Of a DNA stretch of 64,000 nt, positions 2,710-53,779 are shown piece by piece. The position numbers and the translations under genes were made by a program. Origin of the DNA: Patescibacteria group bacterium (GTDB lineage Bacteria > Patescibacteriota > Microgenomatia > UBA1400 > UBA1449); NCBI GenBank assembly GCA_050942955.1, contig JBMNOG010000005.1, positions 307 to 64,306 of the forward strand. The letters run 5' to 3'. The notes beneath the pieces were generated by a model. That model worked only from the letters and a program-made list of their open reading frames with translations, had not been told where the DNA came from and made no database searches. Position 1 is the stretch's first letter. Every line of letters begins with the position of its first letter.

Positions 2710-4380
2710 TTATTTAATCTCATACACATTGCCGTAGGGTGACGCAATCAAAATATGATAATTTTCTTTGAAGAACTTTTCATTTGACATCAGTTCTTCC
2801 TGGGTTTTTCTATCGGTAACAACGAAGCGAATGTTGTATTTTTGAAGGAGTGTTTTAGCTTGAGGGGTCCCTCTATAAATTTGAGTAATATCTTTCTGCC
2901 TTTGGTTGTAATTAATGCCATGAGACCATAGCCAACCCCTATATCCCATAACAATTGACCTCCCTGAAGCCAATGGTACCCAATGCAAGTGATTATCTGA
3001 AGTAAGAACGATATCCTTTGGTTTTGAGTGCTCTCTTAAGAACTTAGCCAACTCAATTTCCTGTCCTGAAACCATCATATAAGATTCCTTTTGAGTATTT
3101 AAAACCCGTACTAGGTCAATTCCTCCTGAAGCAGTTAGACATAGAAATAAAAGTGCTGCCAGAATTTTTCCACCAAGGTGTTTTTCCCAAAGGGTAAGTA
3201 AAAAACCGGCAACAACAAAGCTGAAAATAAGGTAAACCCACAAGAGTAGTTTGGCATTATCCCAAGATGAAGGTTGAAAGGTGAAGAGATTGGCTAGCAA
3301 AAAGATAAAAATAAAGCCTGAGATAAACAGACCGGTTTTTGGTTTCTGCTTACCGACAAACATTCCGACAATAAACAAAGGAATCATAAGCCCCCAGTTT
3401 TTAAGCCAGAACCACCAAAACGGAATATTAAGCTCTCTTGGGTGAGATAACCAACCGGGTAAAAACTGAATGTACTGACTGTAGTCCGGACCGCTGAAAA
3501 AGATGAAAAAAGGTAATGCTGATACACTGGTTCCAAGTGCAAAACTAAGCCAGTGCTTGTAATGCTTTAAGTCAAACAAGAACAGATAAGCTGATAAGAA
3601 AAATAGCATGGCTAATGTGTGGTTATGAATGTATGCTAAAAGACCGCTAACTAGTCCAAGGCTTAGCATTTTTGCTAAGGAAACATCTTTAAAACTTTTT
3701 TGATAGTAAGAGAACAGGAAGTAAAGGATAAATAATCCAAAAGTCATGCCCAGTAAGAAAGCCCGCTGGGGTACCAAGTGTGCCAAAAGGGTGGTGGTCC
3801 AGTAGTAGCCGATATCTTTCATATGCGTATACTCATGAGGCGGGTATAAAGCTGTTTTAAGGGAAAAATTCTGAGCAAGGTCTTTGAAGTAATGGATAAA
3901 ACCAAGCCCGCCACTGGTTAGAAAAAGAGTAACAGCAAGGAGAGTCTGTCTGGAACTACCGGTTAAATGTTTCCCAAGTATGTAAAGCCCAAACAGAAGA
4001 AAAAAAGAGACGATTAAAGAAGGGATAATAAATGCGCTAACTGTATTAACACCTAAGCGTAATAGTAATCCGGAAATTAGGTTGAAGGTAAACGGGTAGG
4101 AAAGAGGTATGCCGGAGTATATAGGGTGATTTTGGAGAACGTGCAAAATTGGTTGGTATGCAAACGCATGGGCTTGGGTGATGTGCATTGCCCAGTCTCC
4201 CCAAATATTCCTCCAGCCTGCAACCAAATCTCCGGTTTTATTGGAGTAAAGCATCCTTGGCCAAAATAAGGCAAAGTACATTCCCCAGGTAAAGAAAAGC
4301 AAGAAAAGAGGTTTGATATTTTTCTTAATAAAACCGGCAACCTTTTTTTTAGTAACAATAAGTGGAATTAGCTGTTTCAT
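2710..4380 (-). CDS. Polytopic membrane protein, putative GT-C-fold glycosyltransferase (uncharacterised)
   Basis: 556 aa with more than 12 predicted TM helices and a soluble C-terminal domain. It is co-directional with, and 18 bp downstream of, the PMT-like gene. Confidence 0.4.
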   Translation of the reverse strand: MKQLIPLIVTKKKVAGFIKKNIKPLFLLFFTWGMYFALFWPRMLYSNKTGDLVAGWRNIWGDWAMHITQAHAFAYQPILHVLQNHPIYSGIPLSYPFTFNLISGLLLRLGVNTVSAFIIPSLIVSFFLLFGLYILGKHLTGSSRQTLLAVTLFLTSGGLGFIHYFKDLAQNFSLKTALYPPHEYTHMKDIGYYWTTTLLAHLVPQRAFLLGMTFGLFILYFLFSYYQKSFKDVSLAKMLSLGLVSGLLAYIHNHTLAMLFFLSAYLFLFDLKHYKHWLSFALGTSVSALPFFIFFSGPDYSQYIQFLPGWLSHPRELNIPFWWFWLKNWGLMIPLFIVGMFVGKQKPKTGLFISGFIFIFLLANLFTFQPSSWDNAKLLLWVYLIFSFVVAGFLLTLWEKHLGGKILAALLFLCLTASGGIDLVRVLNTQKESYMMVSGQEIELAKFLREHSKPKDIVLTSDNHLHWVPLASGRSIVMGYRGWLWSHGINYNQRQKDITQIYRGTPQAKTLLQKYNIRFVVTDRKTQEELMSNEKFFKENYHILIASPYGNVYEIK

Positions 4381-4398
4381 GCCGTTCCTAATTTTTAG

Positions 4399-5697
4399 TT
4401 ACTGCCACGATTCAAACCACTGAAACCGTTTCACTTCCTCTTTTGAAACAGGTATGGCTGTCCAGTAGGGGTAGAAAAACCAGAATAATATAAATGCTGC
4501 AGTCAGAAAAACAAGAGATATGTTTTTAAGTTTTGGACTGTATGAAGAGATTTTCTCCAGACTAAAAGCTAAGATAATGCCCAAGAAAGGAATGGCCGGC
4601 AAGTAATGGTAAAGAAACATAATCCTGGGAGAAAAGATCCAGGGCACCCAGAAAATGGCGTAGGCAATCAGAAGGTAAAACAACTTTTTCTCTTTATGAA
4701 CAATAGCGTACCAAATTGTAAAAGCAACAGCCAGTAACCCTCCCCAAAAAATTAAGGGATTGCCAAGGGCGTAAATATTCTCAACAGTAGTCTTGGAGTA
4801 ATCAACAAAGAACCAAACCGGACGTAGAAGAAGCGGCCAGCTTAAAGCTGATGATTGATAAGGGTGAGTAGCTTTCAAACCGGTATGATACCAGTACATT
4901 TGTTTTTGTAGTTCAACAAACTTATCCACTCCGTAATGATTAATAAGAGGCAGGTAGCTTAATAAGTAAACATCTACACCAACTACCAAATAAAGACTGA
5001 TAATTCCGGAAATTTTAAAAACAGTTTTTCCAATGACTTTCAGACTCTTTTTCCATGGAAAGTAGGTTAGGAGAGCCAAACCTATAAATCCTAAAGAGTA
5101 AATTGCTGTCCATTTTGTCGCTACTGCTGCTCCGAAAAGCAAGCTTGACAGTAAATAGTTTTTCTTTAAGAAAAAGTAAATCATAGAAAGTAAGAAAAAG
5201 GCCAGAATCGTATCTGCCAGGGCAGTACGCGACATAACCAGAAGTAAACCATCTAGAGCTGTGAGAGCAGCTGCCATTACCCCAATAGTAGGTTTTTTCG
5301 GGAAAAGCTCTTTGGCGATATGAAAAACAACAAAAGAAATAGCGACTCCAGCCAGAAGAGGCATGATTCTCCTGGAAAAACTGGATATTCCCAGAAGTTT
5401 AATAGGAACAGCCATGAAAAGCCGACCCATAGGTGGATGAGACCAATCGTAAGCAAACCCTTTTGGGGTTGGGTAGTCCCAGACCCAGGCTTTCATGTTT
5501 CCTTTTACATACTCTTCTGCAGTAAAACCTACATAAACCTCGTCAAAAACGTAAGTTTGAGGATGGTACAGATGCCAAGATTTTGTGGCGACAGCGAAAA
5601 AAAGAATAACAAGCAAAAACACTGTAGTTTTCTGTGGCTCGATAAACGTAGTGTAAAAACTGCGTATCATGTTACTCAAAATCTGTAATAGTTTCAT
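4399..5697 (-). CDS. PMT/GT39-family (protein O-mannosyltransferase-like) GT-C glycosyltransferase
   Basis: Loop-1 motif YVFDEVYVGF...DWSHPPMGRL matches the PMT signature (FDEVHFG...HPPLxK). Multi-TM topology. Confidence 0.65.
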   Translation of the reverse strand: MKLLQILSNMIRSFYTTFIEPQKTTVFLLVILFFAVATKSWHLYHPQTYVFDEVYVGFTAEEYVKGNMKAWVWDYPTPKGFAYDWSHPPMGRLFMAVPIKLLGISSFSRRIMPLLAGVAISFVVFHIAKELFPKKPTIGVMAAALTALDGLLLVMSRTALADTILAFFLLSMIYFFLKKNYLLSSLLFGAAVATKWTAIYSLGFIGLALLTYFPWKKSLKVIGKTVFKISGIISLYLVVGVDVYLLSYLPLINHYGVDKFVELQKQMYWYHTGLKATHPYQSSALSWPLLLRPVWFFVDYSKTTVENIYALGNPLIFWGGLLAVAFTIWYAIVHKEKKLFYLLIAYAIFWVPWIFSPRIMFLYHYLPAIPFLGIILAFSLEKISSYSPKLKNISLVFLTAAFILFWFFYPYWTAIPVSKEEVKRFQWFESWQ

Positions 5698-5748
5698 AGG
5701 AAAATTATATAAAATCTTCAGGCAGATGTTAACCTGAAAACTTTTGTG

Positions 5749-6900
5749 TTAGAAGAGAAGTCCAAGGACAACCAGGGCAATACCACCCAAAGTAAAGATA
5801 AGAGTAGGGGGTATTCCGCCCGCCTTTGGTAGTTCTGGTTTTTCCGGAGCCTGAGTAACAGGGGTTGGGGTGGGTTTTACTTTGCAAATGTTGTCATCTT
5901 TTTCATAATCGTCTTTGCATACGTATTCGCATTTTCTTGAGTCTGTGCATGAATCCACGAGCTTGCGAAGAGTATTAGCAGTAAGATTTTTGTCGTCGTC
6001 TTTGCAAAGCTCAGCGTTACTGGGAACATCGCCTGTACAACTATACGTAATAGGAACGCACTCCCCATCGTCATAGGTGTAATCATCATCACAAATGTAC
6101 TCACATTTGATCTCGTCAGTACATTTATCTACCAATGTTCTTTGAGTGTTTTCCGTTAAGCCTTCATTGTCTCCTGGACACATCTCTGAATCTTCAGGAA
6201 TATCTCCAGTACAGGAATATGTTGGGGTAACACACTCACCGTCTTCATAAATGTGGTCGTCGTCACAAATATACTCACACCATGCTCCAGTACACTCTTC
6301 TACAAGTTCATAGGTTTTGGGTTCAGTTAAAGGAGTTTCAGGGTCCTCACACGCTACCATGTCTTCAGGGACTTCGCCGTCACAAGAAAATGTCCCGACA
6401 GAAAAAGGAATTAAAGCTGAACATTCTTTCCCATCACTTATGTAGCCGGTAAACTCAACTAAACCCTCAGTCTCGCTTATGGTACAAGTGTATGTGATAG
6501 TTGTTGCATCATTCATTGTAGATGATGCTGGTAAACAGTCTATTACCCCAGACTCAGTAAAATCTATATTTTCTAGGTATTGACTATAGCTAAATGTAAA
6601 GGTGGCTTGTTCATTTAGGAGGGGCGGATTGGGATCGATGTCCGTAGTAATTTCAGGACATTCTATATCCGACAGTGTAAAGCTCACTTCGCAGCTTGGA
6701 GCTTGCTGATAGACCTCCGGTTCTTTCACAACTTCTGTTTGCTCTTCCACTTGACTGACTTCTGGTAATGGTGTCCCAGTTGGGGTTGGGGTAGGTTCCG
6801 GTTTTTTGCTGGATTCAAAATATAGTACAGCTGCACTTGAGCCGGCTATGGCAGTTGTAATTATGATAGCGATAATAAGGTAAAGTGTACTGCTTTTCAT
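5749..6900 (-). CDS. Secreted/surface Cys-rich repeat protein with a PT-rich linker and C-terminal LPKAG plus hydrophobic segment
   Basis: N-terminal signal/TM, then a PEPTPTPTGTP linker. Three diverged tandem copies of a ~50-aa CEY[IV]C[DK]DD...GECV module. The C-terminus ends in LPKAGG followed by a hydrophobic helix. Confidence 0.6.
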   Translation of the reverse strand: MKSSTLYLIIAIIITTAIAGSSAAVLYFESSKKPEPTPTPTGTPLPEVSQVEEQTEVVKEPEVYQQAPSCEVSFTLSDIECPEITTDIDPNPPLLNEQATFTFSYSQYLENIDFTESGVIDCLPASSTMNDATTITYTCTISETEGLVEFTGYISDGKECSALIPFSVGTFSCDGEVPEDMVACEDPETPLTEPKTYELVEECTGAWCEYICDDDHIYEDGECVTPTYSCTGDIPEDSEMCPGDNEGLTENTQRTLVDKCTDEIKCEYICDDDYTYDDGECVPITYSCTGDVPSNAELCKDDDKNLTANTLRKLVDSCTDSRKCEYVCKDDYEKDDNICKVKPTPTPVTQAPEKPELPKAGGIPPTLIFTLGGIALVVLGLLF

Positions 6901-6903
6901 ATG

Positions 6904-8403
6904 TTAGTATTCGTCCTGAATATGCCCCCAGCTGGTGCATGTATTGTTGGTATGACATATCTGACATTCGACAGTATAAGTCCCAGATGCTGCATCTTCT
7001 GGAATAAAATAATCCCACATGGCCTCTTTATTCTCATTTAAAGCAACGCCAGTTATACCTGTGTCTGGGATAATTTCATTGTTTAAAAGAACTCTAAAAT
7101 TGGCACTGCTGGCGTTGCTACCACTACCTTTGCAGGTGTAAGTGACAGTTTGTCCTCTGCTAGGATTGGAATTGGACGGGGAAAGCTCTGTACAGCTAAG
7201 TGGTTCTTGTACTTCTTCTACTGTAATCCATTTGATGCAGTTGTTACTACACGAAATTCCAAGGTTTTGCCAGTCAGCGGCATCTACAACACAGCGGTTT
7301 AATCCGACTGTGTTTTCATATAGAATACCCCCTACGGCACACAAGTACTTACACTGATTGCTTTCATATGCATTAGTCTCAAAAGCATAGATGCCAGGCT
7401 CGGTTGGAGTAAAAGTTCCCCTAATAGTATTACTACCTGTTGTTTCTAAGGTTGCAATACCAGTCCCTAAGATTACTCTACCTTTTTCCATGTTTGCTTC
7501 TGGAACCTTTGCATAACGGATAACCCCATAGTCACTTACATTTGCCTCAATAGATACGCTTGAACCCACTTGAGTTGTAGTACTACTTACTTTAAGACTA
7601 TTACAAGAGAAGTTTGGGTAAGTAGGAGTTGAGCAAAGACTATTATTCCAGCTGCAGCCAGTTGCCGCTCTCTGCCAGCCAGCTCCACTTACATCAAGTT
7701 GATAAATTCCACAAGTCGCTGGGGATGATAAGTCCATACATTCTCCAGGATCAAGAGTTACTGTGCGTGATTGACAACCGACACCTTTATTTGCATCAGC
7801 TTCGCACTGATCTTTGGTTTTGTCAGGCCAGTATTCTTCTTTACATTCTGCCACAGATAAGTCTACCGAGCTTCCTCCGGTATTACAAAAATGGTACGCA
7901 TCTCCTTCTAGAACTGCATCACCTGGTCCTTGGTTTACTTGGCAGGATCCGTTCAGCCAAGTACATCTTTCTCCATGAGTCCAGCATGTTGATTCATCTC
8001 CAATAGAGGTGCAAGGGGTGCAGGATCCATAGTGACACACTTGATCATCGCTACAGTCACTATTACTATCACAGTTAGAACTATCGTTATCACTACTATT
8101 ATCATCGCTATTGCTGCAAGGCCCAGCGCATTCTGTTCTACACTCTCCCCAAGAAGAACTCCATGTTCCATTTTCACATCGCCAAACTTCTGCTTCTCCT
8201 GCATCTTCATTACATCCACCGCAATTACCTGTACACCTCCGACTATAGGAACCTTCGGGAGAACAAGGTTCTCCTTGAGAAACAAATATCTCTGGAAGAG
8301 TTTGTTCTGAAAGTCTTAATGCTGTGATAACCGACCCTACACCCAAAGCGATGCAGACAAAAAAGACGAAAAGTGGTAGGACTTGGCCGGCGTTTCTCTT
8401 CAT
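6904..8403 (-). CDS. Secreted Cys-rich (~60 Cys) protein with an Asp/Ser/Asn low-complexity stretch
   Basis: N-terminal signal peptide MKRNAGQVLPLFVFFVCIALG. Dense Cys content. SDNDSSNCDSNSD low-complexity region at nt 8030-8110. The start lies 2 nt from the stop of the upstream gene. Confidence 0.55.
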   Translation of the reverse strand: MKRNAGQVLPLFVFFVCIALGVGSVITALRLSEQTLPEIFVSQGEPCSPEGSYSRRCTGNCGGCNEDAGEAEVWRCENGTWSSSWGECRTECAGPCSNSDDNSSDNDSSNCDSNSDCSDDQVCHYGSCTPCTSIGDESTCWTHGERCTWLNGSCQVNQGPGDAVLEGDAYHFCNTGGSSVDLSVAECKEEYWPDKTKDQCEADANKGVGCQSRTVTLDPGECMDLSSPATCGIYQLDVSGAGWQRAATGCSWNNSLCSTPTYPNFSCNSLKVSSTTTQVGSSVSIEANVSDYGVIRYAKVPEANMEKGRVILGTGIATLETTGSNTIRGTFTPTEPGIYAFETNAYESNQCKYLCAVGGILYENTVGLNRCVVDAADWQNLGISCSNNCIKWITVEEVQEPLSCTELSPSNSNPSRGQTVTYTCKGSGSNASSANFRVLLNNEIIPDTGITGVALNENKEAMWDYFIPEDAASGTYTVECQICHTNNTCTSWGHIQDEY

Positions 8404-8405
8404 AA

Positions 8406-9209
8406 CTACTTTAGGACTGGCAAAGCTTCTAACTGGGTTGGCAGTTTACTGTTGATAATCAAAAAAGAAATTACTAACGATACAATCAAAAATAGTGGGC
8501 CAAGAATTAAGAGAAGCTTGGCAACGTTGCCACCCTTTTTAACTTTCTTTTGTTCATTTGAAGGGTCTTTATCAGAACCAGATGTAGAAGCAGAACCTTT
8601 GGTATGAATTGTAGAAGGAAATGTACTCTCTGATTTATTAATAGTGGAGGGATCACTCTCAGTGTTGACTATTGGAGGTGGTACAACCATATCTCTGTTA
8701 TCCATTCCCGGGGATTTTTCACTAACAGGGGGTTCAGGTGCTGGGAAAACAGGAGGTAAAGTCTCTTCGAAATCATTACCTTGGTCAGCTGAAGCAAGTA
8801 TGTTATCGCTTTTAGTTGGAAGCTGGGGAGGTTTATCTGATTTTTTGGAGGTAACTTTGTCTACTCTCTCTTCAATTTCGCTATCTGTAACAGAAGAGTC
8901 TATTTTGGGTTGCACAAGAACAGGTCCAACCCCTTTTGGTTCAGGAGCTAAAGCTAAAGATTGGGGTTTAAGAAGGTCATCTGTTTCTTCGAGAGCTTTC
9001 AAGTCTTCTGGAGGGATATCGATTTCAATTGGCTTCTCTTCAGATTCTTTAGGTTCGTGTCTAGTTGTACTAATATTACCTTTCAGCTCTTCGTCCCCCC
9101 CTTTAGGCTTAGAAAGTGGAGTAGGAGAACTTGGGGTAGTGCTGGTAGTTTTAGTATCACTTGAAAAAGTACTAGAAGATGAGGTAGTGGAAAGTGAATC
9201 AAAATCCAT
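8406..9209 (-). CDS. Ser/Thr/Pro-rich disordered protein with a C-terminal TM anchor
   Basis: 267 aa, STP-rich, with C-terminal LLLILGPLFLIVSLVISFLII. It is co-directional with its neighbours. A 192-aa ORF on the opposite strand spans the same low-complexity DNA and was judged less likely. Confidence 0.4.
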   Translation of the reverse strand: MDFDSLSTTSSSSTFSSDTKTTSTTPSSPTPLSKPKGGDEELKGNISTTRHEPKESEEKPIEIDIPPEDLKALEETDDLLKPQSLALAPEPKGVGPVLVQPKIDSSVTDSEIEERVDKVTSKKSDKPPQLPTKSDNILASADQGNDFEETLPPVFPAPEPPVSEKSPGMDNRDMVVPPPIVNTESDPSTINKSESTFPSTIHTKGSASTSGSDKDPSNEQKKVKKGGNVAKLLLILGPLFLIVSLVISFLIINSKLPTQLEALPVLK

Positions 9210-9258
9210 AAATATTACTTAATTTATAATAGAATTTATAGTTTTTATCTGTCAATAT

Positions 9259-10683
9259 TTAACTTGCACTCCTTTTCCAACTATATCCACTGGCAATTAA
9301 ACCAAATCCGAAAAGCAAAAGAACTACGGTTGGAGTATTAACTCCCGAAACCGGAACTCCGCTTTTTGTTGAAGGCATAGATGTTCTGGCCGATAGGCTA
9401 GCAGTTGCCGTGGGTTTTGGAGTAGGAGAAATGGTGGGTATAGGTGAGGGTGAAGTATGGGCTGTGGGAGTAGCTTCAAATGCAGGTAAATCTTCAAGCC
9501 CGCCAGTAGCGTCACTGGCAATAATAAAGTCACGACTAAGTGTTTGGCTTCTAGCCATACTATCTATGTAGTCAACGGTTAGCGTATAATCTCCCGGATC
9601 AAGAGGGTCGCTAGGACTAAAACTCCAGTTTCCCTCATCATCCACTGTTTTTGTAGTTGAAATTGGTGATACTCCTCCAGCAATACTTACAGTTAATACT
9701 TTTTTAGCCGGACCCGTACCAAGAAACTCCGGTTGGGTGGTAAAAAGCTCCTCGCCATCTTCTGCTGGGTTTAAGATAGTAACCTCTTCTGATTCAATGC
9801 TTTGATCATATACTTCAGGTGTTTTTGCACTTTCAGTACTCTCAGAAGGGTCACTGCTCTTTGTGCTTTCTTCTGGTTCAAGAGGCAGCTGCTGAGACTG
9901 ATCTTGTTCTACTAGGGGTTTTTCAGGGACACTTGCAACTGTTTCTTGTGTAAAGTCATAAGTCTCACCTAGAGTAACAACTGGAACCGGTGATTTATTA
10001 GCAGCGTTTGTAACAATCTTGCTGGTTTTACTATCTCCCTGAACATCAATATTAATAGCAACAGTTTGAGGATCATAGGTTGCATATTCTGTAAGAGTGG
10101 TATTTCTAGCACTTGAGAGGTTAATAAGCCAGCTGCCATCCTTTTTTACTTGAGTGGATAGAGGGGCCACTCCGGGAATAGAAACGTAGACAATAGCTCC
10201 TTCAGCAGGTTTACCGGTTGTGAGATGAACAACTCCGTTTATCATGTCTGTTGGCGGTTGAGAACCAAGTGCCGGAGCTGTTTTTACAGAGTAGGGTTTT
10301 CCCGAATCATCAAACTGAGTATTTTTTTCTCCAGATCTTATCTTAAAGTAGTACTGTGTAGCTGGTTTGAGATTGGAGATAGTGACATGGTGAAGTTTTC
10401 TGGCCTGACTCTGTCCGGTCAATTGATCGCTATCATCAAGCTGTAGTTGTTCCAGCTTGGTATTGTCCCCGTACATTATTGAGCCGTTAGTTGGTTTTGC
10501 AGTAACCCAAGAAATTGTAAAACGATCATGGCTAACATTAGTGATTCTGATCTTGGTAGGTTTTATATCAGGATCAGGCTTAAAGGTTAGTAGGCCCTTT
10601 TGGTACACAAAGTATGTGCCTATGCCCAAACTAGCAAAAATAATAAATACACCGATAGTAGTAATCAGCTTCTTAATAGACAT
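9259..10683 (-). CDS. Surface protein with an FN3-like domain and a C-terminal sorting-signal-like tail
   Basis: N-terminal TM. FN3-like segment (FTISWVT...YYFKIRSG). PT-rich linker. The C-terminus is hydrophobic and followed by the basic tail KRSAS. The start codon overlaps the upstream stop (TAATG). Confidence 0.5.
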   Translation of the reverse strand: MSIKKLITTIGVFIIFASLGIGTYFVYQKGLLTFKPDPDIKPTKIRITNVSHDRFTISWVTAKPTNGSIMYGDNTKLEQLQLDDSDQLTGQSQARKLHHVTISNLKPATQYYFKIRSGEKNTQFDDSGKPYSVKTAPALGSQPPTDMINGVVHLTTGKPAEGAIVYVSIPGVAPLSTQVKKDGSWLINLSSARNTTLTEYATYDPQTVAINIDVQGDSKTSKIVTNAANKSPVPVVTLGETYDFTQETVASVPEKPLVEQDQSQQLPLEPEESTKSSDPSESTESAKTPEVYDQSIESEEVTILNPAEDGEELFTTQPEFLGTGPAKKVLTVSIAGGVSPISTTKTVDDEGNWSFSPSDPLDPGDYTLTVDYIDSMARSQTLSRDFIIASDATGGLEDLPAFEATPTAHTSPSPIPTISPTPKPTATASLSARTSMPSTKSGVPVSGVNTPTVVLLLFGFGLIASGYSWKRSAS

Positions 10684-11039
10684 TATTGGACAGGCTCACT
10701 GCTAGGCGTTGATTCTTCAACTTCACTTTCTTCAATATCTGGGCTTGGCGAGGCCACTTTTTGACTAGCTAAGCCTGTTAGTGCTTGTTTAGTATTTTCA
10801 GTATACGGAGGAATATCTTCAAGATCAACATCGGAAATAACCTGCCTTTGTTGAAGTTCTTCAACTACAGGAAGATTGAAAGAAGCAGGTAAAGATTTTG
10901 CTGCCTCTTGGGCTTCCTTAGATACTGTTCTTATTTCTTTTGTGGCTGAGACTTCAACAAAAAACCACACCAGAACAGTAATGAAGCTAAAAACTAAAAT
11001 TACATACCAGTAACTGAATGTTTTCTTTTTTACTATCAT
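10683..11039 (-). CDS. Small bitopic membrane protein (PilP-position gene)
   Basis: 118 aa with an N-terminal TM and an acidic disordered tail. It is translationally coupled to the downstream gene. Confidence 0.35.
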   Translation of the reverse strand: MIVKKKTFSYWYVILVFSFITVLVWFFVEVSATKEIRTVSKEAQEAAKSLPASFNLPVVEELQQRQVISDVDLEDIPPYTENTKQALTGLASQKVASPSPDIEESEVEESTPSSEPVQ

Positions 11040-11045
11040 AGATGG

Positions 11046-11702
11046 CTATTTAATATAGTAGTAAACACTTCCTCTTACTAGGAAGTTAGTCTCACCATTC
11101 TGACTTCGTTTGGCTGACTGAATTGAGATTTGTGAGATAGAGTTGATGCGGATATGGTTCTGTAGATTTGCAATAAAGTTTTTTAAGTTGTCATATGTTG
11201 CAGTTACGTTTAAAGAAAAAGTAACTTCAGACACATTTGGACTAATTGACTTTTTTGTTTGCTTTTTTTGACTTTCTTCCTTAGAAGGGGTTTCGGTGCT
11301 TTCTACTACAGGAAAACCCGAAAAAGAAAGAGAAGTAAGTGTCATGCCGTTTTTCTTGATTAAGTAGCGGAATTCCTTTTCTAAAGTGGGAAAGTTTGGA
11401 TTATCCGGCATGGCCTTGTCTATCAATGGAATACTTGGTTGGAGAGCTTGAAACTGAGGAGCAATTTTTTCCAATGCCTCTCTCTTTATGGTTAAATCCT
11501 TGCTCAACTTTTCAAGTTTCTTAATCTGTTCCCGCAGTGTAGTTATAGAAGTTATTGTAGGTCTAATAGCTATGGCAAAGAGAAAAATGATCAGTAAAAC
11601 AGTAGCAATAAAATCTGCCGAAGCACTCGCCAGTGGCAAACTTTGCAGCTGTTCATAAAAACTGATACGTTTTAATTTATCTTGAGGGTTAGGTATATGC
11701 AT
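11046..11702 (-). CDS. pilO: Type IV pilus assembly PilO-like protein
   Basis: Short cytoplasmic N-terminus, one TM, a coiled-coil (LREQIKKLEKLSKDLTIKREALEKI) and a periplasmic domain. It sits immediately downstream of the PilN-like gene. Confidence 0.45.
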   Translation of the reverse strand: MHIPNPQDKLKRISFYEQLQSLPLASASADFIATVLLIIFLFAIAIRPTITSITTLREQIKKLEKLSKDLTIKREALEKIAPQFQALQPSIPLIDKAMPDNPNFPTLEKEFRYLIKKNGMTLTSLSFSGFPVVESTETPSKEESQKKQTKKSISPNVSEVTFSLNVTATYDNLKNFIANLQNHIRINSISQISIQSAKRSQNGETNFLVRGSVYYYIK

Positions 11703-11704
11703 AG

Positions 11705-12325
11705 CTATTGAATCTCTTTAGTTTTTTCTTGACCAGTATTAATTTCAATTTGAATAGAAAAGGTTATCTCAGGATTAATCACACCTTTAGATTGAAGCTC
11801 ATCTACAGAAATTTCCTCAAATTCAGGTACTTTTTTAAGGGCAGCTAGCATGGCGGCAAACAGTTTTTCATTAAGTGTTTTCCCTTTAAATGTTAGACGG
11901 TTACCGCTAAAGCTAATTAGCTCAAGCTGTGTTCCTAATGGCAAACTATTTTCAATCTTTCGAAGAACAAGAACCATATCTTGGGAATTATCAGAAGTAA
12001 GAATTGTGTCAATTGTGTCCAGCTTGTCCTGAAGTCTTCTTATCTTGAACTCAATTTCACTGTACTCCTGAATGGCTGCTACATCTTCATCAATTTGCTC
12101 ATTAAGGGCAGAAACCTTTCTATCCAAGCTGAAACGATAAAGAAGAGCACCTACAACAACTGTAAAAGTTATAAAAACCAGTGTCTTCCCTATGGTGAGA
12201 GCCCAGTTAATTGCTTTACCTAGCTTCGAGTTTTCGAAGTTAGTACTAGTGAGGAAGTTGACTGTAAGAGTTTTTTTGTGTTTGGGCATGTAGGCAGAAA
12301 CGCACAAATATTGCTTGCCTATCAT
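11705..12325 (-). CDS. pilN: Type IV pilus assembly PilN-like protein
   Basis: 206 aa with a basic cytoplasmic N-terminal tail, a single TM (LVFITFTVVVGALLY), a coiled-coil and a C-terminal periplasmic domain. This is the PilN architecture. Confidence 0.5.
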   Translation of the reverse strand: MIGKQYLCVSAYMPKHKKTLTVNFLTSTNFENSKLGKAINWALTIGKTLVFITFTVVVGALLYRFSLDRKVSALNEQIDEDVAAIQEYSEIEFKIRRLQDKLDTIDTILTSDNSQDMVLVLRKIENSLPLGTQLELISFSGNRLTFKGKTLNEKLFAAMLAALKKVPEFEEISVDELQSKGVINPEITFSIQIEINTGQEKTKEIQ

Positions 12326-12437: not shown

Positions 12438-12683
12438 CTACTTGGAAGTTTTACTAGCAGTTTTTGTAAGCCGGCTCTTAAGCCGATTGACTCTACCTTT
12501 AGGAAGAATATTCTTCTTGGCGGCCTTATCAAGTGAAGAAAAAGCTTGAGCGATATTTTCTGGCGTGGGTTTCTGCCGGGCTTTTTTAAGCAATGTTCGA
12601 GCACGGCTTCTGATTGGCTTATTTGCTTCTGCTTTTTTTAGGTTTTGTCTGAGAGCTTTTCTAGCTGATTGAGTAACTGGCAT
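12438..12683 (-). CDS. rpsT: 30S ribosomal protein S20
   Basis: 81 aa, very basic. The N-terminal SARKALRQNLKKAEANK matches the S20 signature. Confidence 0.85.
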   Translation of the reverse strand: MPVTQSARKALRQNLKKAEANKPIRSRARTLLKKARQKPTPENIAQAFSSLDKAAKKNILPKGRVNRLKSRLTKTASKTSK

Positions 12684-27682: not shown

Positions 27683-28585
27683 ATGAAGATAGGTTATGCC
27701 TCAACAAATACTTCTCTTCCCTGTAAAAGTACAAAAACCTTTCGGTTCAGCTCGTTTTCGGAAGCCCGTTTTCGTGAGACTGTTGTCAATAACCTAGACT
27801 GTTTAAAGCAAATCTTAAACTTCAATCTCCAGCACAATATCTTATTTTTCCGTATTACTTCTGACCTTATTCCTTTTGCTTCTCATCCTATAAACAGAAT
27901 TCCCTGGCAGGAGATGTATGCAGACAAACTAGCATCTTTGGGAAAATTTGTTTGGGAAAAGGGTATGAGAGTTGGGATGCATCCGGATCAGTTTGTGGTT
28001 ATTAACTCTTCCTCTTCGGAAGTGGTTAAAAACAGCGTAGCGGAACTTGTTTACCATGTAGAAGTTTTGAATCTGATGAACCTGGACTACTCTCACAAAA
28101 TCCAGATTCACATTGGGGGAGCATACGGGGATAAGCTTTCAGCCACTGCACGTTTTATAAACCGCTATAAAAGCTTACCGGAAACAGTTAAGCGTCGGTT
28201 GGTAATTGAAAATGATGAAACGCTTTACGGAGTCAAGGATTGTCTTTGGGTTTCTGAGCAAACAGGCATTCCGATTGTTTTTGACATTTTCCATTACCGG
28301 ATTAAAGAGTATAAAGATACTGTAAAAGAAGTGATGCAAAAAGTGGCCTTGACTTGGAAACAGGTTGATGGGCTGCCTATTGTTGACTACAGCAACCAAG
28401 CTCCTAATAAGCGTTTTGGGTCACACAGTCAAACTATTGATACTGCCGATTTTATGCGCACAGTACAAGAACTAAAAGGTTTTGACTTTGACATTATGCT
28501 TGAAGTAAAAGATAAAGAAATAAGTGCAATTAAAGCTTTAGAAGCTATAAAACAAAGGTATGCAAAAGAAAGTAGCTCTCATTGA
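27683..28585 (+). CDS. uvdE: UV-damage endonuclease UvdE
   Basis: MKIGYASTNTSLP...ITSDLIPFASHP matches the UvdE TIM-barrel family N-terminus. 300 aa. Confidence 0.7.
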   Translation: MKIGYASTNTSLPCKSTKTFRFSSFSEARFRETVVNNLDCLKQILNFNLQHNILFFRITSDLIPFASHPINRIPWQEMYADKLASLGKFVWEKGMRVGMHPDQFVVINSSSSEVVKNSVAELVYHVEVLNLMNLDYSHKIQIHIGGAYGDKLSATARFINRYKSLPETVKRRLVIENDETLYGVKDCLWVSEQTGIPIVFDIFHYRIKEYKDTVKEVMQKVALTWKQVDGLPIVDYSNQAPNKRFGSHSQTIDTADFMRTVQELKGFDFDIMLEVKDKEISAIKALEAIKQRYAKESSSH

Positions 28586-29834
28586 CTGCAATAACTTCTT
28601 TGTTTCCTGCGAAAGACTTTTTAATCCTCAACTTAAAGACAAACCAATAGTAGTCTTGTCCAACAACGACGGCTGTATTGTTTCTCGTTCTAATGAGGCT
28701 AAGGCTCTAGGGATTGCCATGGGGATGCCTTTATTTAAATGTCTAGATGTGGTCAAAAAATATGACGTCCAAGTTTTTTCTTCTAACTTTATTTTGTATG
28801 GAGATATTTCACACCGGGTTATGGATACATTAAGACAATTTTCACCTGAGGTTGAAATATACTCAATTGATGAAGCTTTTATAGCTTTAAATCTAAATAC
28901 CAATCAAGAAACTGTTGAGTACGGAAAAAAGATCCGTGAAACGATACTAAAATGGGTGGGAGTTCCGGTCTCAGTTGGCATTAGTTCCACTAAAACTCTA
29001 GCTAAAGCTGCCAGCGAGATTGCCAAGAAAAACCTTGATTTTGAAGGAGTATTAGAAATAGACAAAGAAAACGTTGATATTATGCTATCTGTTTTGCCTG
29101 TTGGAGATGTGTGGGGAATAGGCAGGCAGTACGCTAGGTTCTTAAAAAAACATGCAGTTGAAACTGCTCTTGATCTTCGTGAACTATCTGACGAATGGGT
29201 TAGGAAAAATCTTACTGTCTCAGGACTGAAAACTGTTTGGGAACTGAGAGGTAAAGGCTGCATTGATTTTGAGCATGTGCCTCCTGCCAGAAAATCAATT
29301 ATCAGTTCACGATCGTTTGGAAAACCGGTGGCCGACTATATCAGCTTACGGGAAGCGGTTGCCAGTTACACTTCAATAGCTGCAGAGAAGTTGCGCAACC
29401 AGAAACTGGTAGCCTCTTGTGTTTTAGTTTACATAACTACCAACCGGTTTAAAGAGCAAGAAAAACAGTATTCCAATTCTTATGTTCTTAGATTACTGGA
29501 AGCTACCAATGATACATCTATCCTAGTAAAACACGCCACTGAAGCCTTGAAAAAGATTTACAAAAAGGGTTTTAAGTATAAAAAAGCTGGAGTGCTCTTG
29601 CTGGATCTGGTTTCTGAAAACAATATACAGGCAAACTTATTTACCAACCAGCGAGGAAAGATTAAAAGAAGTAAACTCCTGCATGCTTTAGATTTCATTA
29701 ACAACCGCTGGGGAGGCAACACAGTAAGTGTCGCGGCAGCCGGCATTAAAAAACCGTGGAAGGCAAACCAAGCTAGAAAAACAGGCAGACTAACTACTTC
29801 TTGGGACGAGCTTCCGAAAGTTAAAACTAGATAG
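28560..29834 (+). CDS. umuC: Y-family translesion DNA polymerase UmuC
   Basis: VALIDCNNFFVSCERLFNPQLKDKPIVVLSNNDGCIVSRS is the canonical UmuC/DinB N-terminus. It overlaps the uvdE 3' end by 26 nt. Confidence 0.85.
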   Translation: MQKKVALIDCNNFFVSCERLFNPQLKDKPIVVLSNNDGCIVSRSNEAKALGIAMGMPLFKCLDVVKKYDVQVFSSNFILYGDISHRVMDTLRQFSPEVEIYSIDEAFIALNLNTNQETVEYGKKIRETILKWVGVPVSVGISSTKTLAKAASEIAKKNLDFEGVLEIDKENVDIMLSVLPVGDVWGIGRQYARFLKKHAVETALDLRELSDEWVRKNLTVSGLKTVWELRGKGCIDFEHVPPARKSIISSRSFGKPVADYISLREAVASYTSIAAEKLRNQKLVASCVLVYITTNRFKEQEKQYSNSYVLRLLEATNDTSILVKHATEALKKIYKKGFKYKKAGVLLLDLVSENNIQANLFTNQRGKIKRSKLLHALDFINNRWGGNTVSVAAAGIKKPWKANQARKTGRLTTSWDELPKVKTR

Positions 29835-45260: not shown

Positions 45261-47630
45261 TTGCTTGAACGTATGAAAAAAAACACAAAACCTACTTCAA
45301 AAGTCAGAAAGTCTACTAAAACTCGCCAGTCTTCCAATAAAAACAAAGTAAAATCTGCATCAAAGTCTTTAGTAAAAGCTGTAGTTACTAAGAAAACCAC
45401 TTCTAAACCCTCACTTATTAAGAGTAGTAAAACAGAAAAGCTGTTAAATTGTTACATTCCAAAAGTAGCTTGGTACGGTGCTTTAGTCTTAGGATTTGTT
45501 TTTTTTCTACTTTATCTTTTTACAGCTCCTAAAACAAACGTTGCTTACACTGATTCTGATCTCTTCCTAACAGTTGCCTATAAACTAGGACTTGCAGAAC
45601 CACCGGGTGTACCTTTATATATGGTGCTGCTTCATTTTTTTCTTAATCTCCCCATCCCGGGATCAATCGCTTTCAGGGGTCATTTTCTAAGCACCCTTCT
45701 GCATACAGGCTCTTTAGTTATTGTGTTTGTATCAGTATGGAGGTTAATTCAGTTTCTTCAAAACAACAACAATGCAAAACTAATAATAGTTTCAAAGCAA
45801 GTTGATAGGTGGTTAGTTAGTGGTATAGCTACAGCTTCCCTAGGATCTTCATACCTGTTTTGGCAGTACGGAATTGTAGCTGAAAAATATGCCTTTATTG
45901 ATCTTTTAGTTGCTGCTGTGATTGGTATTGGAGTTTATGTGGCTACTACTGCTAAATCAAAAACAAATCTTTCTTACTGGTATGCCCTTGCCGGTTTAAT
46001 TGGGATCTTAGTTATTCATCATCCAATCTCTTTTGTTTTACTGCCTTTTGTCGCAATTTTAGTTTGGTTGAAAAAAGATATCTTTTCGAGAAAACAATAT
46101 ATGGGAATGGTGTTATCACTGTTAGTTTCTATAAGTATTAGCATAGGTGTTTTACTTGGATTAAATGCCTTAGAAAGAGAAATTAACTGGAACTTTAAGC
46201 CAACTGTTAAAGAAACAATAGACTATGTGTTTACCCAGGGTTTTAGTCGTAGTATTGCTGAAAACTTTGAAGAATACTCAGCCTTTGCTCAGATTAGCAG
46301 TGGCTCAGTTTTTAAGTCCTTAATGCAGTTTGGTAAAGTGTTTGTACAGCACTTTGGTTTGGGATCAGTCGCGCTTTTAGTGGTAGGAATTGCCTTTTTA
46401 TACTCCTCTTCAAAAAAAATGAGTTTAGTAATTCTAAGCGGCTGGACAACCGTAGGGCTGTTACTACCAGTGTTTCTGAAATGGCCAGAGAGCATGAGTT
46501 TTCAGGCTTTACGGGTACGTGACTACCTTATGGGGTACATGTTTACTCCTTTACTTGTAGGTTTGGGGGGTTGGATGGTGCTGGCGCGGTTTAATAAAGC
46601 TCTTAAAATACTTTTGCAAAACAACCGTGTTTCAACAGGGGTTACTCTTGTTGTTCCTGCGCTCATTTTAATCGTATCTATTGTAAATACTTTTAAACAC
46701 GTAAATTTACGTAACTTTACAGTATTTAGCCGTTTTCATGAATCGGTTCTTGAAAACCTTCCTCATGATGCGCTGATTGGATGTTTTACGGATACGACTT
46801 GCTCAGCTCTTTTGTATGAACAAGAGGTTAAAGGTGTAAGAAAAGATGTAATTATTGTTTCTCCTTCGCACCAGTTAATACAGAAAAAGCTTAACAGTAT
46901 TGATAACCTCAAAGGTTTTGATTACACGAATAATACCTGGTTGGTGCATGACTACTTGACTTGGAATATCGGTAAAAGGCCGGTGTATGTTATTGATCTA
47001 CCTAAAACCTATTACAACCTTCTCGGTTTAACCTACGGATTTACGTACTACATTCCAAATGGGTATGTAGGTGAATTGACTCGTGAAGTTCCAGAGGTAA
47101 CTCCATCTGTCAAGTATTCTTTTTCCGAAGAGATCGAAAACATGAATGTTCCCTCAAAAGACTTAATGCGGACTTGGCTTAAAACCTCATACGCACAGCT
47201 CCATTACTTTAATGCCGTCATGTATCTAAAAATGGATTACAGGAGCTTGGCGCGGTCAGAGTTGAATACTTTTTCTAACATTCTCCATCAAGTAGAAGCT
47301 ATTTCTAATAAAGAGATAGAAGATTCTCGGAGCTATGTTGAAGGTTCTCATCCATTAGTCAATTTTTCGCCTGGATCTGAAGTACAGCCTCTTAGCGAGA
47401 TTATGAACGGAGTTAACGCGTATTTAAATGATGGGAAACTACAGAGAGCATATACAGGTGCACTGGGGATTATTACAATTGATCCGCTCAATGAAGAAGG
47501 TCGGCTGAAACTGGCTGAGATTTATGAAAAAATGGGTAATACCCAAATGGCAAAAGTGGAGTATCAGCACGTGCTCAAGTATTACCCAAGTAACACTCAA
47601 GCTCAAACTAAACTTGCAGAGCTTAAATAG
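45261..47630 (+). CDS. DUF2723/TMEM260-like GT-C glycosyltransferase with C-terminal TPR repeats (paralog 1)
   Basis: Basic Ser/Lys-rich N-terminus. Multi-TM domain with YTDSDLFLTVAYKLGLAEPPGVPLYMVL. TPR repeats at the C-terminus. Confidence 0.55.
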   Translation: MLERMKKNTKPTSKVRKSTKTRQSSNKNKVKSASKSLVKAVVTKKTTSKPSLIKSSKTEKLLNCYIPKVAWYGALVLGFVFFLLYLFTAPKTNVAYTDSDLFLTVAYKLGLAEPPGVPLYMVLLHFFLNLPIPGSIAFRGHFLSTLLHTGSLVIVFVSVWRLIQFLQNNNNAKLIIVSKQVDRWLVSGIATASLGSSYLFWQYGIVAEKYAFIDLLVAAVIGIGVYVATTAKSKTNLSYWYALAGLIGILVIHHPISFVLLPFVAILVWLKKDIFSRKQYMGMVLSLLVSISISIGVLLGLNALEREINWNFKPTVKETIDYVFTQGFSRSIAENFEEYSAFAQISSGSVFKSLMQFGKVFVQHFGLGSVALLVVGIAFLYSSSKKMSLVILSGWTTVGLLLPVFLKWPESMSFQALRVRDYLMGYMFTPLLVGLGGWMVLARFNKALKILLQNNRVSTGVTLVVPALILIVSIVNTFKHVNLRNFTVFSRFHESVLENLPHDALIGCFTDTTCSALLYEQEVKGVRKDVIIVSPSHQLIQKKLNSIDNLKGFDYTNNTWLVHDYLTWNIGKRPVYVIDLPKTYYNLLGLTYGFTYYIPNGYVGELTREVPEVTPSVKYSFSEEIENMNVPSKDLMRTWLKTSYAQLHYFNAVMYLKMDYRSLARSELNTFSNILHQVEAISNKEIEDSRSYVEGSHPLVNFSPGSEVQPLSEIMNGVNAYLNDGKLQRAYTGALGIITIDPLNEEGRLKLAEIYEKMGNTQMAKVEYQHVLKYYPSNTQAQTKLAELK

Positions 47631-47635
47631 CTGCC

Positions 47636-49885: not shown

Positions 49886-50996
49886 TTACCGGTGTCTCAG
49901 TTTGAATAATAACCTCATTATACTTTTCAACGACAATTTTTTTGTTGCCTTTAAAATCGCTTAACCATAAACGTTTAAACTGAGCTGGTCCGTCGGGAAC
50001 GATTTCCTCAATGAGAAATTGGTTTTCAGACCAGGGGATGGAGCGGGGCTTGTTAAGTTCTGAAGCAATAGTTATTGGAGTACGTGCTACCTCTTTTCGT
50101 TGATAGTAATCGAAAACATGCCAGTATCCCTTTTTGCTTAAAACAAAAATTTTATCGTTAATACATTTCACAGATAGAATAGCATTATCTTCATTCAAGG
50201 AAACAATAGTTTCCGGGTTTTCAGGATTGATAACGGTGTAAAGCTCAAGTGTACTATTGTTAATAGTAACCACTCCAGTAGAGTCAGGTGCCCAAAAAAC
50301 ATAGTTTCTGTCTGCTAGATTAGTTTTGGTGGAGAACTGATGAGATGATCTCCCTCCTTTTGTAGTAAACATGAATTTGGGTTTATCAGTTGTTTGTCCG
50401 TATCCTGAAACGAACAGAATCATACTCCCATTAGGTGAAAGTTTAAAGACGTTACCGTAAGGGTAAGGGATGGGAGCTTGAATCACAGTTCCATTTGCCA
50501 GGTTATGATGGTACAGAGTATTTCCTTCATCTGTGATAAACATAACAACATTTGAGTTAGGAGAGAAATCTAAGTATGGATTGGTGTTAAGGAAACTATT
50601 TGGAGGGTAAATACTGTAAATTTCTTGTGATTTAATACTTAAAGCCATTACACCTTTAATAGGAGTGTACCAAACGACCCATTGCTTAGTTGGACTTATA
50701 ATAAAGCTCTCTATTTCGGGTGCTGGGGGTTGTTCTTCACTTTTGAAAGCATAGATAGCAAGAGGTCTGGCAAACTCAGGGTCAACAAGGTAAAGGGAGT
50801 TATTATTTGCAAACGCAACTAAACTATTTCCCTGAAGGATATCATCTATAGAGATTGGACTATTTTCTACTGGGTTTTCAGGACCTTTTGAACTTAGTTG
50901 AAACTGAGAAAAATCAATCTTTGGGGAACAGGCTGTTAAAAAGAGTCCTAAAAGGCAGAAAAGAACTAGGTAAATACCATACTTAATTGATCCCAT
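49878..50996 (-). CDS. Secreted lipoprotein, probable beta-propeller (TolB/WD40-like) fold
   Basis: Lipobox LFLTAC. Repetitive beta-strand-rich sequence. Confidence 0.4.
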   Translation of the reverse strand: MGSIKYGIYLVLFCLLGLFLTACSPKIDFSQFQLSSKGPENPVENSPISIDDILQGNSLVAFANNNSLYLVDPEFARPLAIYAFKSEEQPPAPEIESFIISPTKQWVVWYTPIKGVMALSIKSQEIYSIYPPNSFLNTNPYLDFSPNSNVVMFITDEGNTLYHHNLANGTVIQAPIPYPYGNVFKLSPNGSMILFVSGYGQTTDKPKFMFTTKGGRSSHQFSTKTNLADRNYVFWAPDSTGVVTINNSTLELYTVINPENPETIVSLNEDNAILSVKCINDKIFVLSKKGYWHVFDYYQRKEVARTPITIASELNKPRSIPWSENQFLIEEIVPDGPAQFKRLWLSDFKGNKKIVVEKYNEVIIQTETPVIN

Positions 50997-51052
50997 ATTA
51001 TCTCGGTAGCGAACCTACCTCATACTATACCATACTTTATGAACAAGGGAAG

Positions 51053-52474: not shown

Positions 52475-53162
52475 AGATACATCCCAATGTACCGATAGTG
52501 GTTATAAATACCCAGTTAGTTGGTGTTTGAGTGATGGTTTTTGAACTAGATACAGAAGAATCGCCATCATAAAAAGGAATAGCAGGTGCAAAAGTAGAGT
52601 TAGTTTCAAACTGGGGTGGAGGAGTGCCATCAGGTTCTCCGATTTTCATCCTAAAACTATCCATAGCTCCCGGCTTGATAATTGTGCCCAAAAACTGAAA
52701 ACTGGGATAGACAAAGGAAATTGCAGTATATCCCTTCTGTTTTGCTTTTAAGGAGAAAATTGCTATTAGACCTTCATCGTCATCATATGCTTTTGATTCA
52801 GGAAAACTGCAGGCAAAGATAAGTTTAGAACCGTAGTAGTAAGGGGTAGTCCTTTCAAAATTTTCACCGGGAGGGATTGAGACGGCCGGCTTCCATGAGG
52901 AACAAACTGAATTTTGAACATTAAGAGCATGAAAGTCCCAGTACTCCTCATCAAACTGAATAGCAATTTGCACTGTTTCCAGTTGGCTGCCATCACTGTT
53001 TAAGAATAACTTGAAAATGCCAACATCACCTTCGTTATAGTACTCTTCGCCAGTAAGGTAAAAAAAAGGATTTGCGGTAACTACGGAAGGATGCGCTAAT
53101 ACACAAAAAGAAAGAATGATTGTAATAGAAAAACTTCGGATTAATAGTCTCAATCTAATCAT
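52428..53162 (-). CDS. Cohesin-like domain protein with a C-terminal TM anchor (paralog)
   Basis: PFFYL...TPYYYGSKLIFA...IAIFSLKAKQKGYTAISFV parallels the neighbouring gene. C-terminal TM followed by RKRKA. Confidence 0.45.
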   Translation of the reverse strand: MIRLRLLIRSFSITIILSFCVLAHPSVVTANPFFYLTGEEYYNEGDVGIFKLFLNSDGSQLETVQIAIQFDEEYWDFHALNVQNSVCSSWKPAVSIPPGENFERTTPYYYGSKLIFACSFPESKAYDDDEGLIAIFSLKAKQKGYTAISFVYPSFQFLGTIIKPGAMDSFRMKIGEPDGTPPPQFETNSTFAPAIPFYDGDSSVSSSKTITQTPTNWVFITTIGTLGCIFAVNTILWLIRKRKA

Positions 53163-53232
53163 ACCTTCAACGTATCTTAGAATTATGACGATTTAGACTG
53201 GAATTTGCAATAAACGGAAGTTTTAAAAATAT

Positions 53233-53778: not shown

Positions 53779-53779
53779 T

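Follow-up and report, generated by a model that had tools for sequence, protein, structure and literature searches.

A nine-gene array of PilN/PilO, surface-protein and GT-C glycosyltransferase genes in a Patescibacteria genome, probably three neighbouring envelope modules

Results

An array of nine envelope genes

The window analysed here is a 64-kb stretch of DNA from an uncultured member of the Patescibacteria (candidate phyla radiation), in which nine open reading frames (ORFs), all on the minus strand, occupy positions 2710 to 12325. They code for PilN and PilO homologues, a small membrane protein, an FN3/Ig-domain protein, three further proteins of a variable surface-protein cassette, and two glycosyltransferases of the GT-C fold. 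The original prediction, made from the sequence alone, described the content and order of these nine codirectional genes correctly, and proposed that the PilN/PilO pair had been recruited into a module for surface-protein export and O-glycosylation. We think it reasonably probable that the array is instead made up of three envelope modules lying side by side in a compact Patescibacteria genome, and is not one machine. The recruitment proposal is unsupported, because the blocks separate at greater evolutionary distance (in L014 and in L008, L009, and L012, where L numbers denote the related loci described below), both block boundaries have a promoter-like site, the N-terminal motif of PilN is retained, the Ser/Thr/Pro-rich (STP-rich) part of one of the proteins is probably cytoplasmic, and the flanking genes are as syntenic as the array itself.

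The first module (12289 to 9259) would comprise pilN and pilO together with genes for a small bitopic protein and a doubly anchored FN3/Ig protein. PilN and PilO would be the membrane components of a subcomplex for type IVa pilus assembly, for which PilM, the ATPases, the platform protein, and the pilins would be encoded elsewhere in the genome, and the small and FN3 proteins would be lineage-specific envelope partners. The second module (9209 to 5749) would be a quickly evolving cassette of surface proteins anchored in the membrane, with a conserved MDFD N terminus at one end and a conserved LP[KR]AGG-transmembrane (TM) C terminus at the other. The third (5697 to 2710) would be a conserved pair, a PMT-type O-mannosyltransferase and an STT3/AglB-like GT-C enzyme, predicted to glycosylate exported proteins on the outer side of the membrane with sugars carried on polyprenyl phosphate; the Pro/Thr-rich (PT-rich) linkers of the FN3 and Cys-rich proteins encoded nearby may be among the targets. 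The nine genes are as follows, in the order of transcription.

pilN, 11705 to 12289 (the ORF reaches 12325), minus strand: 194 aa from M13, bitopic, PF05137, with an N-terminal VNFLT (INLLP-like) motif.
pilO, 11046 to 11702, minus strand: 218 aa, with a TM segment, a long helix, and a domain of two alpha-beta-beta units, PF04350.
Small bitopic membrane protein, 10683 to 11039, minus strand: 118 aa, of no known family, consistently after pilO.
FN3/Ig-domain envelope protein, 9259 to 10683, minus strand: 474 aa, with an N-terminal TM segment, FN3-like, CarboxypepD_reg-like, and Big_13 domains, and a PT-rich linker.
MDFD protein (STP-rich), 8406 to 9209, minus strand: 267 aa, with an acidic, STP-rich N-terminal region and a single C-terminal TM segment after KKVKKGG.
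Cys-rich surface protein 1, 6904 to 8403, minus strand: 499 aa, 36 Cys, with an N-terminal TM segment or signal.
Cys-rich surface protein 2, 5749 to 6900, minus strand: 383 aa, 23 Cys, with three ∼58-aa repeats, PT-rich linkers, and an ELPKAGG-TM C terminus.
PMT-type (GT39-like) protein O-mannosyltransferase homologue, 4399 to 5697, minus strand: 432 aa, lacking a MIR domain.
GT-C-fold glycosyltransferase of an unannotated family, 2710 to 4380, minus strand: 556 aa, with an AglB-like C-terminal globular domain.

Spacing and promoter-like sites

From pilN to the GT-C gene, successive genes are separated by 2, 6, −1, 49, 2, 3, 51, and 18 nt. Their median separation, 4.5 nt, is well below the 56.5 nt found for the remaining 34 pairs of same-strand neighbours in the window, so the tight packing of the array is genuine. 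The gaps nonetheless divide the genes into three tight groups (2, 6, −1 / 49 / 2, 3 / 51 / 18 nt), and the translational coupling originally proposed for the whole array holds inside these subclusters but not across the 49- and 51-nt gaps, each of which contains a sigma-70-like site matching 11 of 12 consensus positions. Codirection is by itself weak evidence for a functional connection, because the same window contains codirectional runs of 19 and 11 genes with unrelated functions (including murJ, lepA, hrcA, dnaJ, gltX, uvdE, uvrD, and secA). Tandem Repeats Finder reported no DNA repeats within the array.

Promoter-like sites were identified solely by scans for the sigma-70 consensus, and the promoters are therefore predictions. 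There are six 11-of-12 sites in the 64 kb, of which three lie on the coding strand in the gaps upstream of the array and at its internal boundaries, and one lies directly upstream of lepA; shuffled sequence of 64 kb has ∼2.75 sites of this quality, randomly placed. Across the 10.5 kb of the array these three are the only near-consensus sites.

P1, 12324 to 12353, minus strand: TTTACA-18-TATAAT, 11/12, upstream of pilN, with the −10 box overlapping the ATG at 12325.
P2, 9226 to 9255, minus strand: TTGACA-18-TATTAT, 11/12, inside the 49-nt gap before the MDFD gene.
P3, 5704 to 5732, minus strand: TTAACA-17-TATAAT, 11/12, inside the 51-nt gap before the PMT gene.

P1-like sites are present upstream of pilN in L004, L005, and L014, and P2 is kept in L011 (11/12) and L004 (10/12). 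A weak hairpin (5711 to 5744) overlaps P3, and the TATAAT of P3 (5697 to 5709 region) ends 6 nt ahead of the PMT start codon with no Shine-Dalgarno sequence between them, so the PMT mRNA may be leaderless.

PilN, PilO, and their downstream partners

The identities of PilN and PilO, both of which had been proposed from the sequence alone, are borne out by profile and fold comparisons. PilN matches PF05137 over residues 120 to 193 with 33.5 bits (Pfam gathering score, 22.8), and an identical product is present in NCBI and JGI, labelled "PilN domain-containing protein" and 194 aa long by the NCBI call. A full HMMER search recovers 653 homologues, all of ∼180 to 200 aa, and the family is visible only by this route; word-index protein searches returned three proteins for PilN and two for PilO. 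The gene had been placed from 12325, and on sequence grounds its true start is most likely 12289 (M13), because the homologues all align from residue 13, NCBI calls a 194-aa protein, and a promoter-like TATAAT overlaps the ATG at 12325. The PilO match to PF04350 is marginal (24.9 bits; Pfam cut-off, 22), and the AlphaFold2 model, built from a shallow alignment, is of low confidence (predicted local distance difference test [pLDDT], 61). The model nevertheless shows the succession of secondary-structure elements expected of PilO (a TM segment, a long helix, and two alpha-beta-beta units), and its best Foldseek matches in the PDB are the Myxococcus xanthus and Pseudomonas aeruginosa PilO structures (E values of 1e-6 to 4e-3). 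The L014 homologue of PilO, 29% identical, carries a precomputed PilO match with an E value of ≤1e-5.

The INLLP-like motif is probably the PilM-binding segment of PilN; a literature search on the motif returned nothing useful. In the window the PilN N terminus reads TLTVNFLTS and is followed by the TM segment, and 37 homologues give the consensus INLL, in which the Asn does not vary (37/37). The N terminus of PilN is the binding site of PilM (PMC6916266), and retention of the motif suggests that the window PilN is still partnered by PilM; since the motif is kept, a pilus machine with its other parts encoded elsewhere is the simplest reading.

The 118-aa protein encoded after pilO has no Pfam or NCBIfam match, and homologues are found at the same position in L004, L005, L010, L011, and L014. 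We judge it to be neither a pilin nor a PilP analogue, since it has no prepilin motif, lipobox, or beta-sandwich domain. The start of the FN3 gene overlaps the stop of this small gene by 1 nt, and the FN3 protein has Pfam matches to FN3/Pur_ac_phosph_N, CarboxypepD_reg, and Big_13 between N- and C-terminal hydrophobic segments. Its C terminus is conserved as MPSTxSG, a TM segment, and a basic tail (MPSTKSG..TM..KRSAS in the window), so that the predicted surface protein with a sorting-signal tail is right in its domains and in having a conserved tail, although this tail is not a canonical LPXTG signal. In monoderms PilO has a sizeable additional domain, which has been speculated to assist pili in crossing the cell wall or anchoring to it (PMC6916266). 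Because PilO is short here and a conserved FN3/Ig protein is translationally coupled downstream, the FN3 protein may by analogy supply the wall-crossing or anchoring function proposed for the long C-terminal extension of monoderm PilO.

The variable surface-protein cassette

The 267-aa MDFD protein had been described as secreted and as an obvious substrate for O-mannosylation, and neither description is well supported. It has no signal peptide, a lysine cluster precedes its sole, C-terminal TM segment, and in relatives the corresponding N-terminal region comes before a TM segment and a Cys-rich ectodomain (855 aa in L004; 336 aa in L006); for these reasons its STP-rich part is probably cytoplasmic, and the protein is not an evident mannosylation substrate. 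A secreted, mucin-like substrate was considered for this protein and rejected on the same topology. As an observation on the cassette itself, the gene following FN3 always starts M-[DN]-F-D and continues with an acidic, low-complexity N terminus that lacks a signal peptide and then a single TM segment (window 8406 to 9209, minus strand; L004 4464 to 7031; L005 5859 to 6770; L006 1445 to 2455; L011 1898 to 2740).

Cys-rich protein 1 is only partly conserved in relatives, and its C-terminal CARDB-like match is weak. The three repeats of Cys-rich protein 2 are detectable at the protein level only. Its ELPKAGG-TM C terminus, which lacks a basic tail, is 59 to 87% identical in L004, L005, and L006 (BLASTP) and is also found in L002, and the ectodomains of relatives sharing the ELP[KR]AGG tail differ completely. 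In relatives the cassette has between one and three genes, some of them fused or split, and the terminal signatures are all that is kept.

The last surface gene before PMT always ends with ELP[KR]AGG followed by PT[LV][LI]F..GGI...LGL[LI][FL] and then directly by the stop codon, a basic tail being absent (window 5749 to 5850, minus strand; L002 ∼700 to 800; L004 7735 to 8628; L005 7955 to 8695; L006 1445 to 2455). From its sequence, this tail resembles a sorting signal, though not one of a described type. No sortase TLxTC motif occurs in any frame of the 64-kb window, the sole match to sortase-dependent surface-protein families is a weak one to an LPXTG family (E value, 0.087), and a literature search on sortases in the candidate phyla radiation returned nothing useful. 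The PT-rich linkers of the FN3 and Cys-rich proteins are plausible as predicted glycosylation targets.

The PMT homologue and the 556-aa GT-C enzyme

The first of the two glycosyltransferases is recognizably a PMT-like enzyme, as had been proposed, with matches to PF02366 (PMT; 2.5e-10), PF13231 (PMT_2; 4.2e-11), and PF16192 (PMT_4TMC; 4.5e-29), and a loop-1 DE motif, VFDEVYVG, that aligns opposite the catalytic VFDEVHFG of yeast Pmt1 and Chaetomium thermophilum Pmt4. Bacterial Pmt proteins have no MIR domain, and eukaryotic members do; the 432-aa window protein has no MIR match, and its two PMT halves are contiguous. Its NCBIfam equivalog score of 66 bits is far under the cut-off of 800, and a literature search on PMT in Patescibacteria found nothing useful.

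The 556-aa protein has no Pfam or NCBIfam match, and a PDB sequence search gave nothing meaningful. Its structure model (pLDDT, 95) has a clear GT-C fold nearest to STT3/AglB, in keeping with its initial description as a second GT-C enzyme, and the loop-1 Asp is invariant. The fold is also near those of AftA, AftD, and ArnT, and AftA, ALG12, ArnT, and Pmt4 score almost as high as STT3/AglB; the modelled protein has the GT-C fold, with STT3/AglB as a candidate subfamily. Elsewhere in the window, two tandem plus-strand genes (45261 to 49885; 789 and 749 aa) each code for a TMEM260-like O-mannosyltransferase (GT-C) domain with TPR repeats, which brings the number of GT-C enzymes in the 64 kb to four.

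Related loci

A metagenome scan with the FN3 alignment yielded one close relative (L011), and a single-protein genome scan with the 556-aa protein yielded two loci. The array is bordered on its upstream side by a conserved gene, included as context only:

rpsT, 12438 to 12683, minus strand: ribosomal protein S20, upstream of pilN.

Divergent from rpsT is murJ, and the opposite end of the array is bordered by genes for LCP (LytR_cpsA_psr) and FemAB proteins. The order rpsT-PilN-PilO-small-FN3 is kept in L004, L005, L010, and L014, still so at 30% PilN identity in L010 and L014, and L011 has the small and FN3 genes. Between L014 and the window the FN3 protein is 41% identical, PilN 30%, and PilO 29%. 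In Saccharibacteria, pilM, pilN, and pilO are together within pilus loci (PMC11623550), whereas in the loci of this clade pilN consistently follows rpsT and not pilM; more generally, pilus genes in Patescibacteria are commonly spread across several loci (PMC11623550). Downstream of FN3, L014 departs from the window, with a Wzy_C/TPR gene in place of PMT, then a gene for an N-in TM protein, and then one for a Cys-rich protein. The first of these (L014 9005 to 10957) codes for a 650-aa protein with Wzy_C (O-antigen ligase or O-oligosaccharyltransferase-like) and TPR domains, and stands where the window has the surface cassette and PMT.

The glycosyltransferase pair has a wider distribution, and PMT adjoins a 556-family gene in L002, L004, L005, L006, L008, L009, and L012. 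The 556-family members of L008 and L009, from distant Patescibacteria, are 35 to 36% identical to that of the window, with PMT adjacent in divergent orientation, and the member in L012, a 4.7-Mb non-Patescibacteria genome with exosortase genes, is 45% identical, again with PMT adjacent. In a Eubacteriales contig (L003), a gene for a PMT-domain fusion protein lies 3.3 kb from a 556-family gene. No PilN, PilO, or FN3 gene was found nearby in L003, L008, L009, or L012, and neither PMT nor PilN/PilO is near the 556-family gene in L007 or L015. Among these loci, PilN/PilO accompany 556-family genes only in the close clade, at an identity of at least 49%. Family members in L007 and L012 adjoin sugar epimerase and GT2/GtrA genes. 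The L012 gene (10001 to 11614) is just downstream of PMT, with exosortase EpsH, PEP-CTERM, GT2, and GtrA genes nearby. The L012 protein is closer to the window 556-aa protein than are many Patescibacteria homologues, which suggests transfer between phyla.

One system or several

Several observations weigh against a division into three modules. No gene for PilM, an ATPase, the platform protein, a prepilin peptidase, or pilins was found in the 64 kb (Pfam on 39 larger ORFs, with some ORFs below ∼240 aa not in the Pfam scan), and regular-expression searches of all frames of the 64 kb gave no prepilin (G-F/M-T-L-I-E) or secretion-ATPase Walker motif; the statement that the array has no PilM, pilin, or ATPase gene thus extends to the whole window by the scans made. 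The internal promoter-like sites are not uniformly kept: P2 is absent in L005 and L006, where the gap from FN3 to the next gene is 5 to 6 nt, and no site of at least 10/12 is present at the position of P3 in L004, L005, or L006, so that only the window has such a site ahead of PMT. The array may therefore be read through, or be transcribed as a single mRNA. The full nine-gene order, whose absence from relatives would have counted against the original proposal, is kept in every relative sampled, down to ∼49% GT-C identity (49 to 66%), and the contexts compared number 11 for the GT-C family and 6 for PilN only. In L014, a glycan-handling enzyme and surface proteins again follow FN3, which hints at a recurrent link between PilN-PilO-FN3 and glycosylation. 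However, the same 49 to 66% relatives also keep the unrelated flanks murJ, rpsT, LCP, and FemAB, and because these are equally kept, the conserved order reflects general synteny and is not evidence of linkage.

These considerations bear most directly on the proposal that the nine genes form a single dedicated system, in which a PilN/PilO scaffold uncoupled from pili organizes the export, anchoring, and O-glycosylation of surface proteins. It draws on the order conserved to 49% identity, on the very tight spacing relative to the rest of the window, on the extracellular PT-rich linkers of the FN3 and Cys-rich proteins, on the arrangement in L014, and on the precedent of PilMNO co-option as a flagellar cage (PMC10823254). 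We nevertheless judge it improbable, given the equal conservation of the housekeeping flanks, the occurrence of the PMT/GT-C pair without PilN/PilO in L008, L009, and L012, the promoter-like sites at both block boundaries, and the INLLP-like motif retained by PilN; with four GT-C genes in 64 kb, chance adjacency is also not rare. A form of the same idea, to which we give only an outside chance, is that PilN/PilO with the small and FN3 proteins is an envelope scaffold no longer (or not only) for pili, which anchors variable surface glycoproteins modified on site by the PMT and the STT3/AglB-like enzyme; if true, it would constitute a pilus-derived surface-glycoprotein display system for an episymbiont.

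Alternatively, PilN-PilO-small-FN3 could be an envelope complex that works independently of pili, such as an anchor spanning the wall or a structure for adhesion. It would have parted from PilM and the motor, and would be unrelated to the cassettes next to it. That pilN follows rpsT in every clade locus, as opposed to the joint pilM-pilN-pilO of Saccharibacteria (PMC11623550), that FN3 is the best-conserved member (41% versus 30% for PilN and 29% for PilO), and that no pilus gene was found in the 64 kb all point this way. But a PilN motif with an invariant Asn is difficult to account for unless PilN has a partner in the cytoplasm, such as PilM, scattered pilus genes are common in Patescibacteria (PMC11623550), and the complex is in our view decidedly unlikely. 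The function of the enzyme pair can be questioned separately, since the PMT-like and 556-aa proteins might build or decorate a wall glycopolymer or glycolipid and not modify proteins at all. The array sits between murJ and the LCP and FemAB genes, the 556-aa fold is near AftA, AftD, and ArnT, which act on glycans or lipids, and the members in L007 and L012 are next to sugar epimerase and GT2/GtrA genes. The PMT hallmarks and the resemblance to STT3/AglB favour protein substrates, and we regard the glycopolymer role as unlikely, if worth keeping in mind. Three adjacent modules accordingly remain the arrangement that we prefer.

Other features of the window

Two further groups of genes in the window are of note. 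On the plus strand (27683 to 29834), a gene for UvdE, a UV-damage endonuclease, overlaps the beginning of one for a Y-family polymerase (IMS/ImuB-like), and a UvrD helicase gene comes next; together they form a compact cluster for DNA-damage tolerance. On the minus strand (49878 to 57819) is a seven-gene run, mostly without Pfam matches, which includes genes for a cohesin-like protein (53233 to 53778), a protein with a C-terminal type I dockerin (55557 to 56801), and a WxL-interacting peptidoglycan-binding protein (56872 to 57819). This run may represent a cohesin-dockerin surface assembly in a Patescibacteria genome.

Discussion

Implications for the Patescibacteria envelope

Patescibacteria are thought to rely on their cell surface and pili for attachment to hosts, and their envelope machinery is almost unknown. 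A PilN-PilO pair that is always coupled to a conserved FN3/Ig protein may bear on how the type IV pili of monoderms deal with the wall, a question raised in PMC6916266. The unannotated, well-folded GT-C family is found alongside bacterial PMT genes in more than one phylum, and may contribute a second step to the glycosylation of bacterial proteins or act as a partner in it. The MDFD N terminus and LP[KR]AGG-TM C terminus may be sorting or interaction signals.

Comparison with known systems

The closest counterpart of the first module is the type IVa PilM-PilN-PilO subcomplex of monoderms (Streptococcus sanguinis, Clostridium, and the Saccharibacteria TM7x), with which it shares adjacent, tightly coupled genes for bitopic PilN (PF05137) and PilO (PF04350), an INLLP-like motif, and a monoderm host (PMC6916266; PMC11623550). 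The window differs in having no pilM, ATPase, platform, peptidase, or pilin gene within 64 kb, and its PilO is short, at 218 aa, compared with 56.6 kDa in S. sanguinis. Its pair is also flanked by rpsT upstream and by the small bitopic and 474-aa FN3/Ig genes downstream. Co-option of PilN/PilO-type proteins outside pili has a precedent in the flagellar motors of Campylobacterota, which co-opted PilM/N/O homologues (PMC10823254); the window differs in having no flagellar genes and in keeping the PilN motif, and there is no evidence of co-option in this lineage.

The PMT homologue resembles actinobacterial Pmt (with its polyprenyl-phosphate-mannose synthase) and the eukaryotic PMT/GT39 enzymes in its PMT, PMT_2, and PMT_4TMC domains and in the loop-1 DE motif VFDEVYVG. 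Unlike these, it is shorter (432 aa), scores 66 bits against the NCBIfam cut-off of 800, and is paired with a second, unannotated GT-C enzyme; and, unlike the actinobacterial case, the array contains no polyprenyl-phosphate-sugar synthase gene, the GT2 genes being ∼35 kb away. The 556-aa protein is much shorter than STT3, AglB, and PglB and only 10 to 13% identical to them, with no sequence-level match, and its conserved GYRGWLWSxG segment does not match the WWDYG motif in sequence.

Pilin glycosylation genes occur in pilus loci, such as those for P. aeruginosa TfpW, a GT-C arabinosyltransferase, and for TfpO/PglL, which are Wzy_C-type O-oligosaccharyltransferases. The window and L014 are similar to these in that pilus-related genes adjoin GT-C or Wzy_C-type membrane glycosyltransferases, but here the adjacent genes include none for a pilin, and the glycosyltransferase pair is also found at loci with no pilus gene nearby. 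Each component of the array is thus of a known kind, and on present evidence the array is not a new kind of system; three features are new as variants, namely the PilN-PilO-small-FN3 unit linked to rpsT, the GT-C family without annotation that is found with PMT in different phyla, and the pair of signatures at the termini of the cassette.

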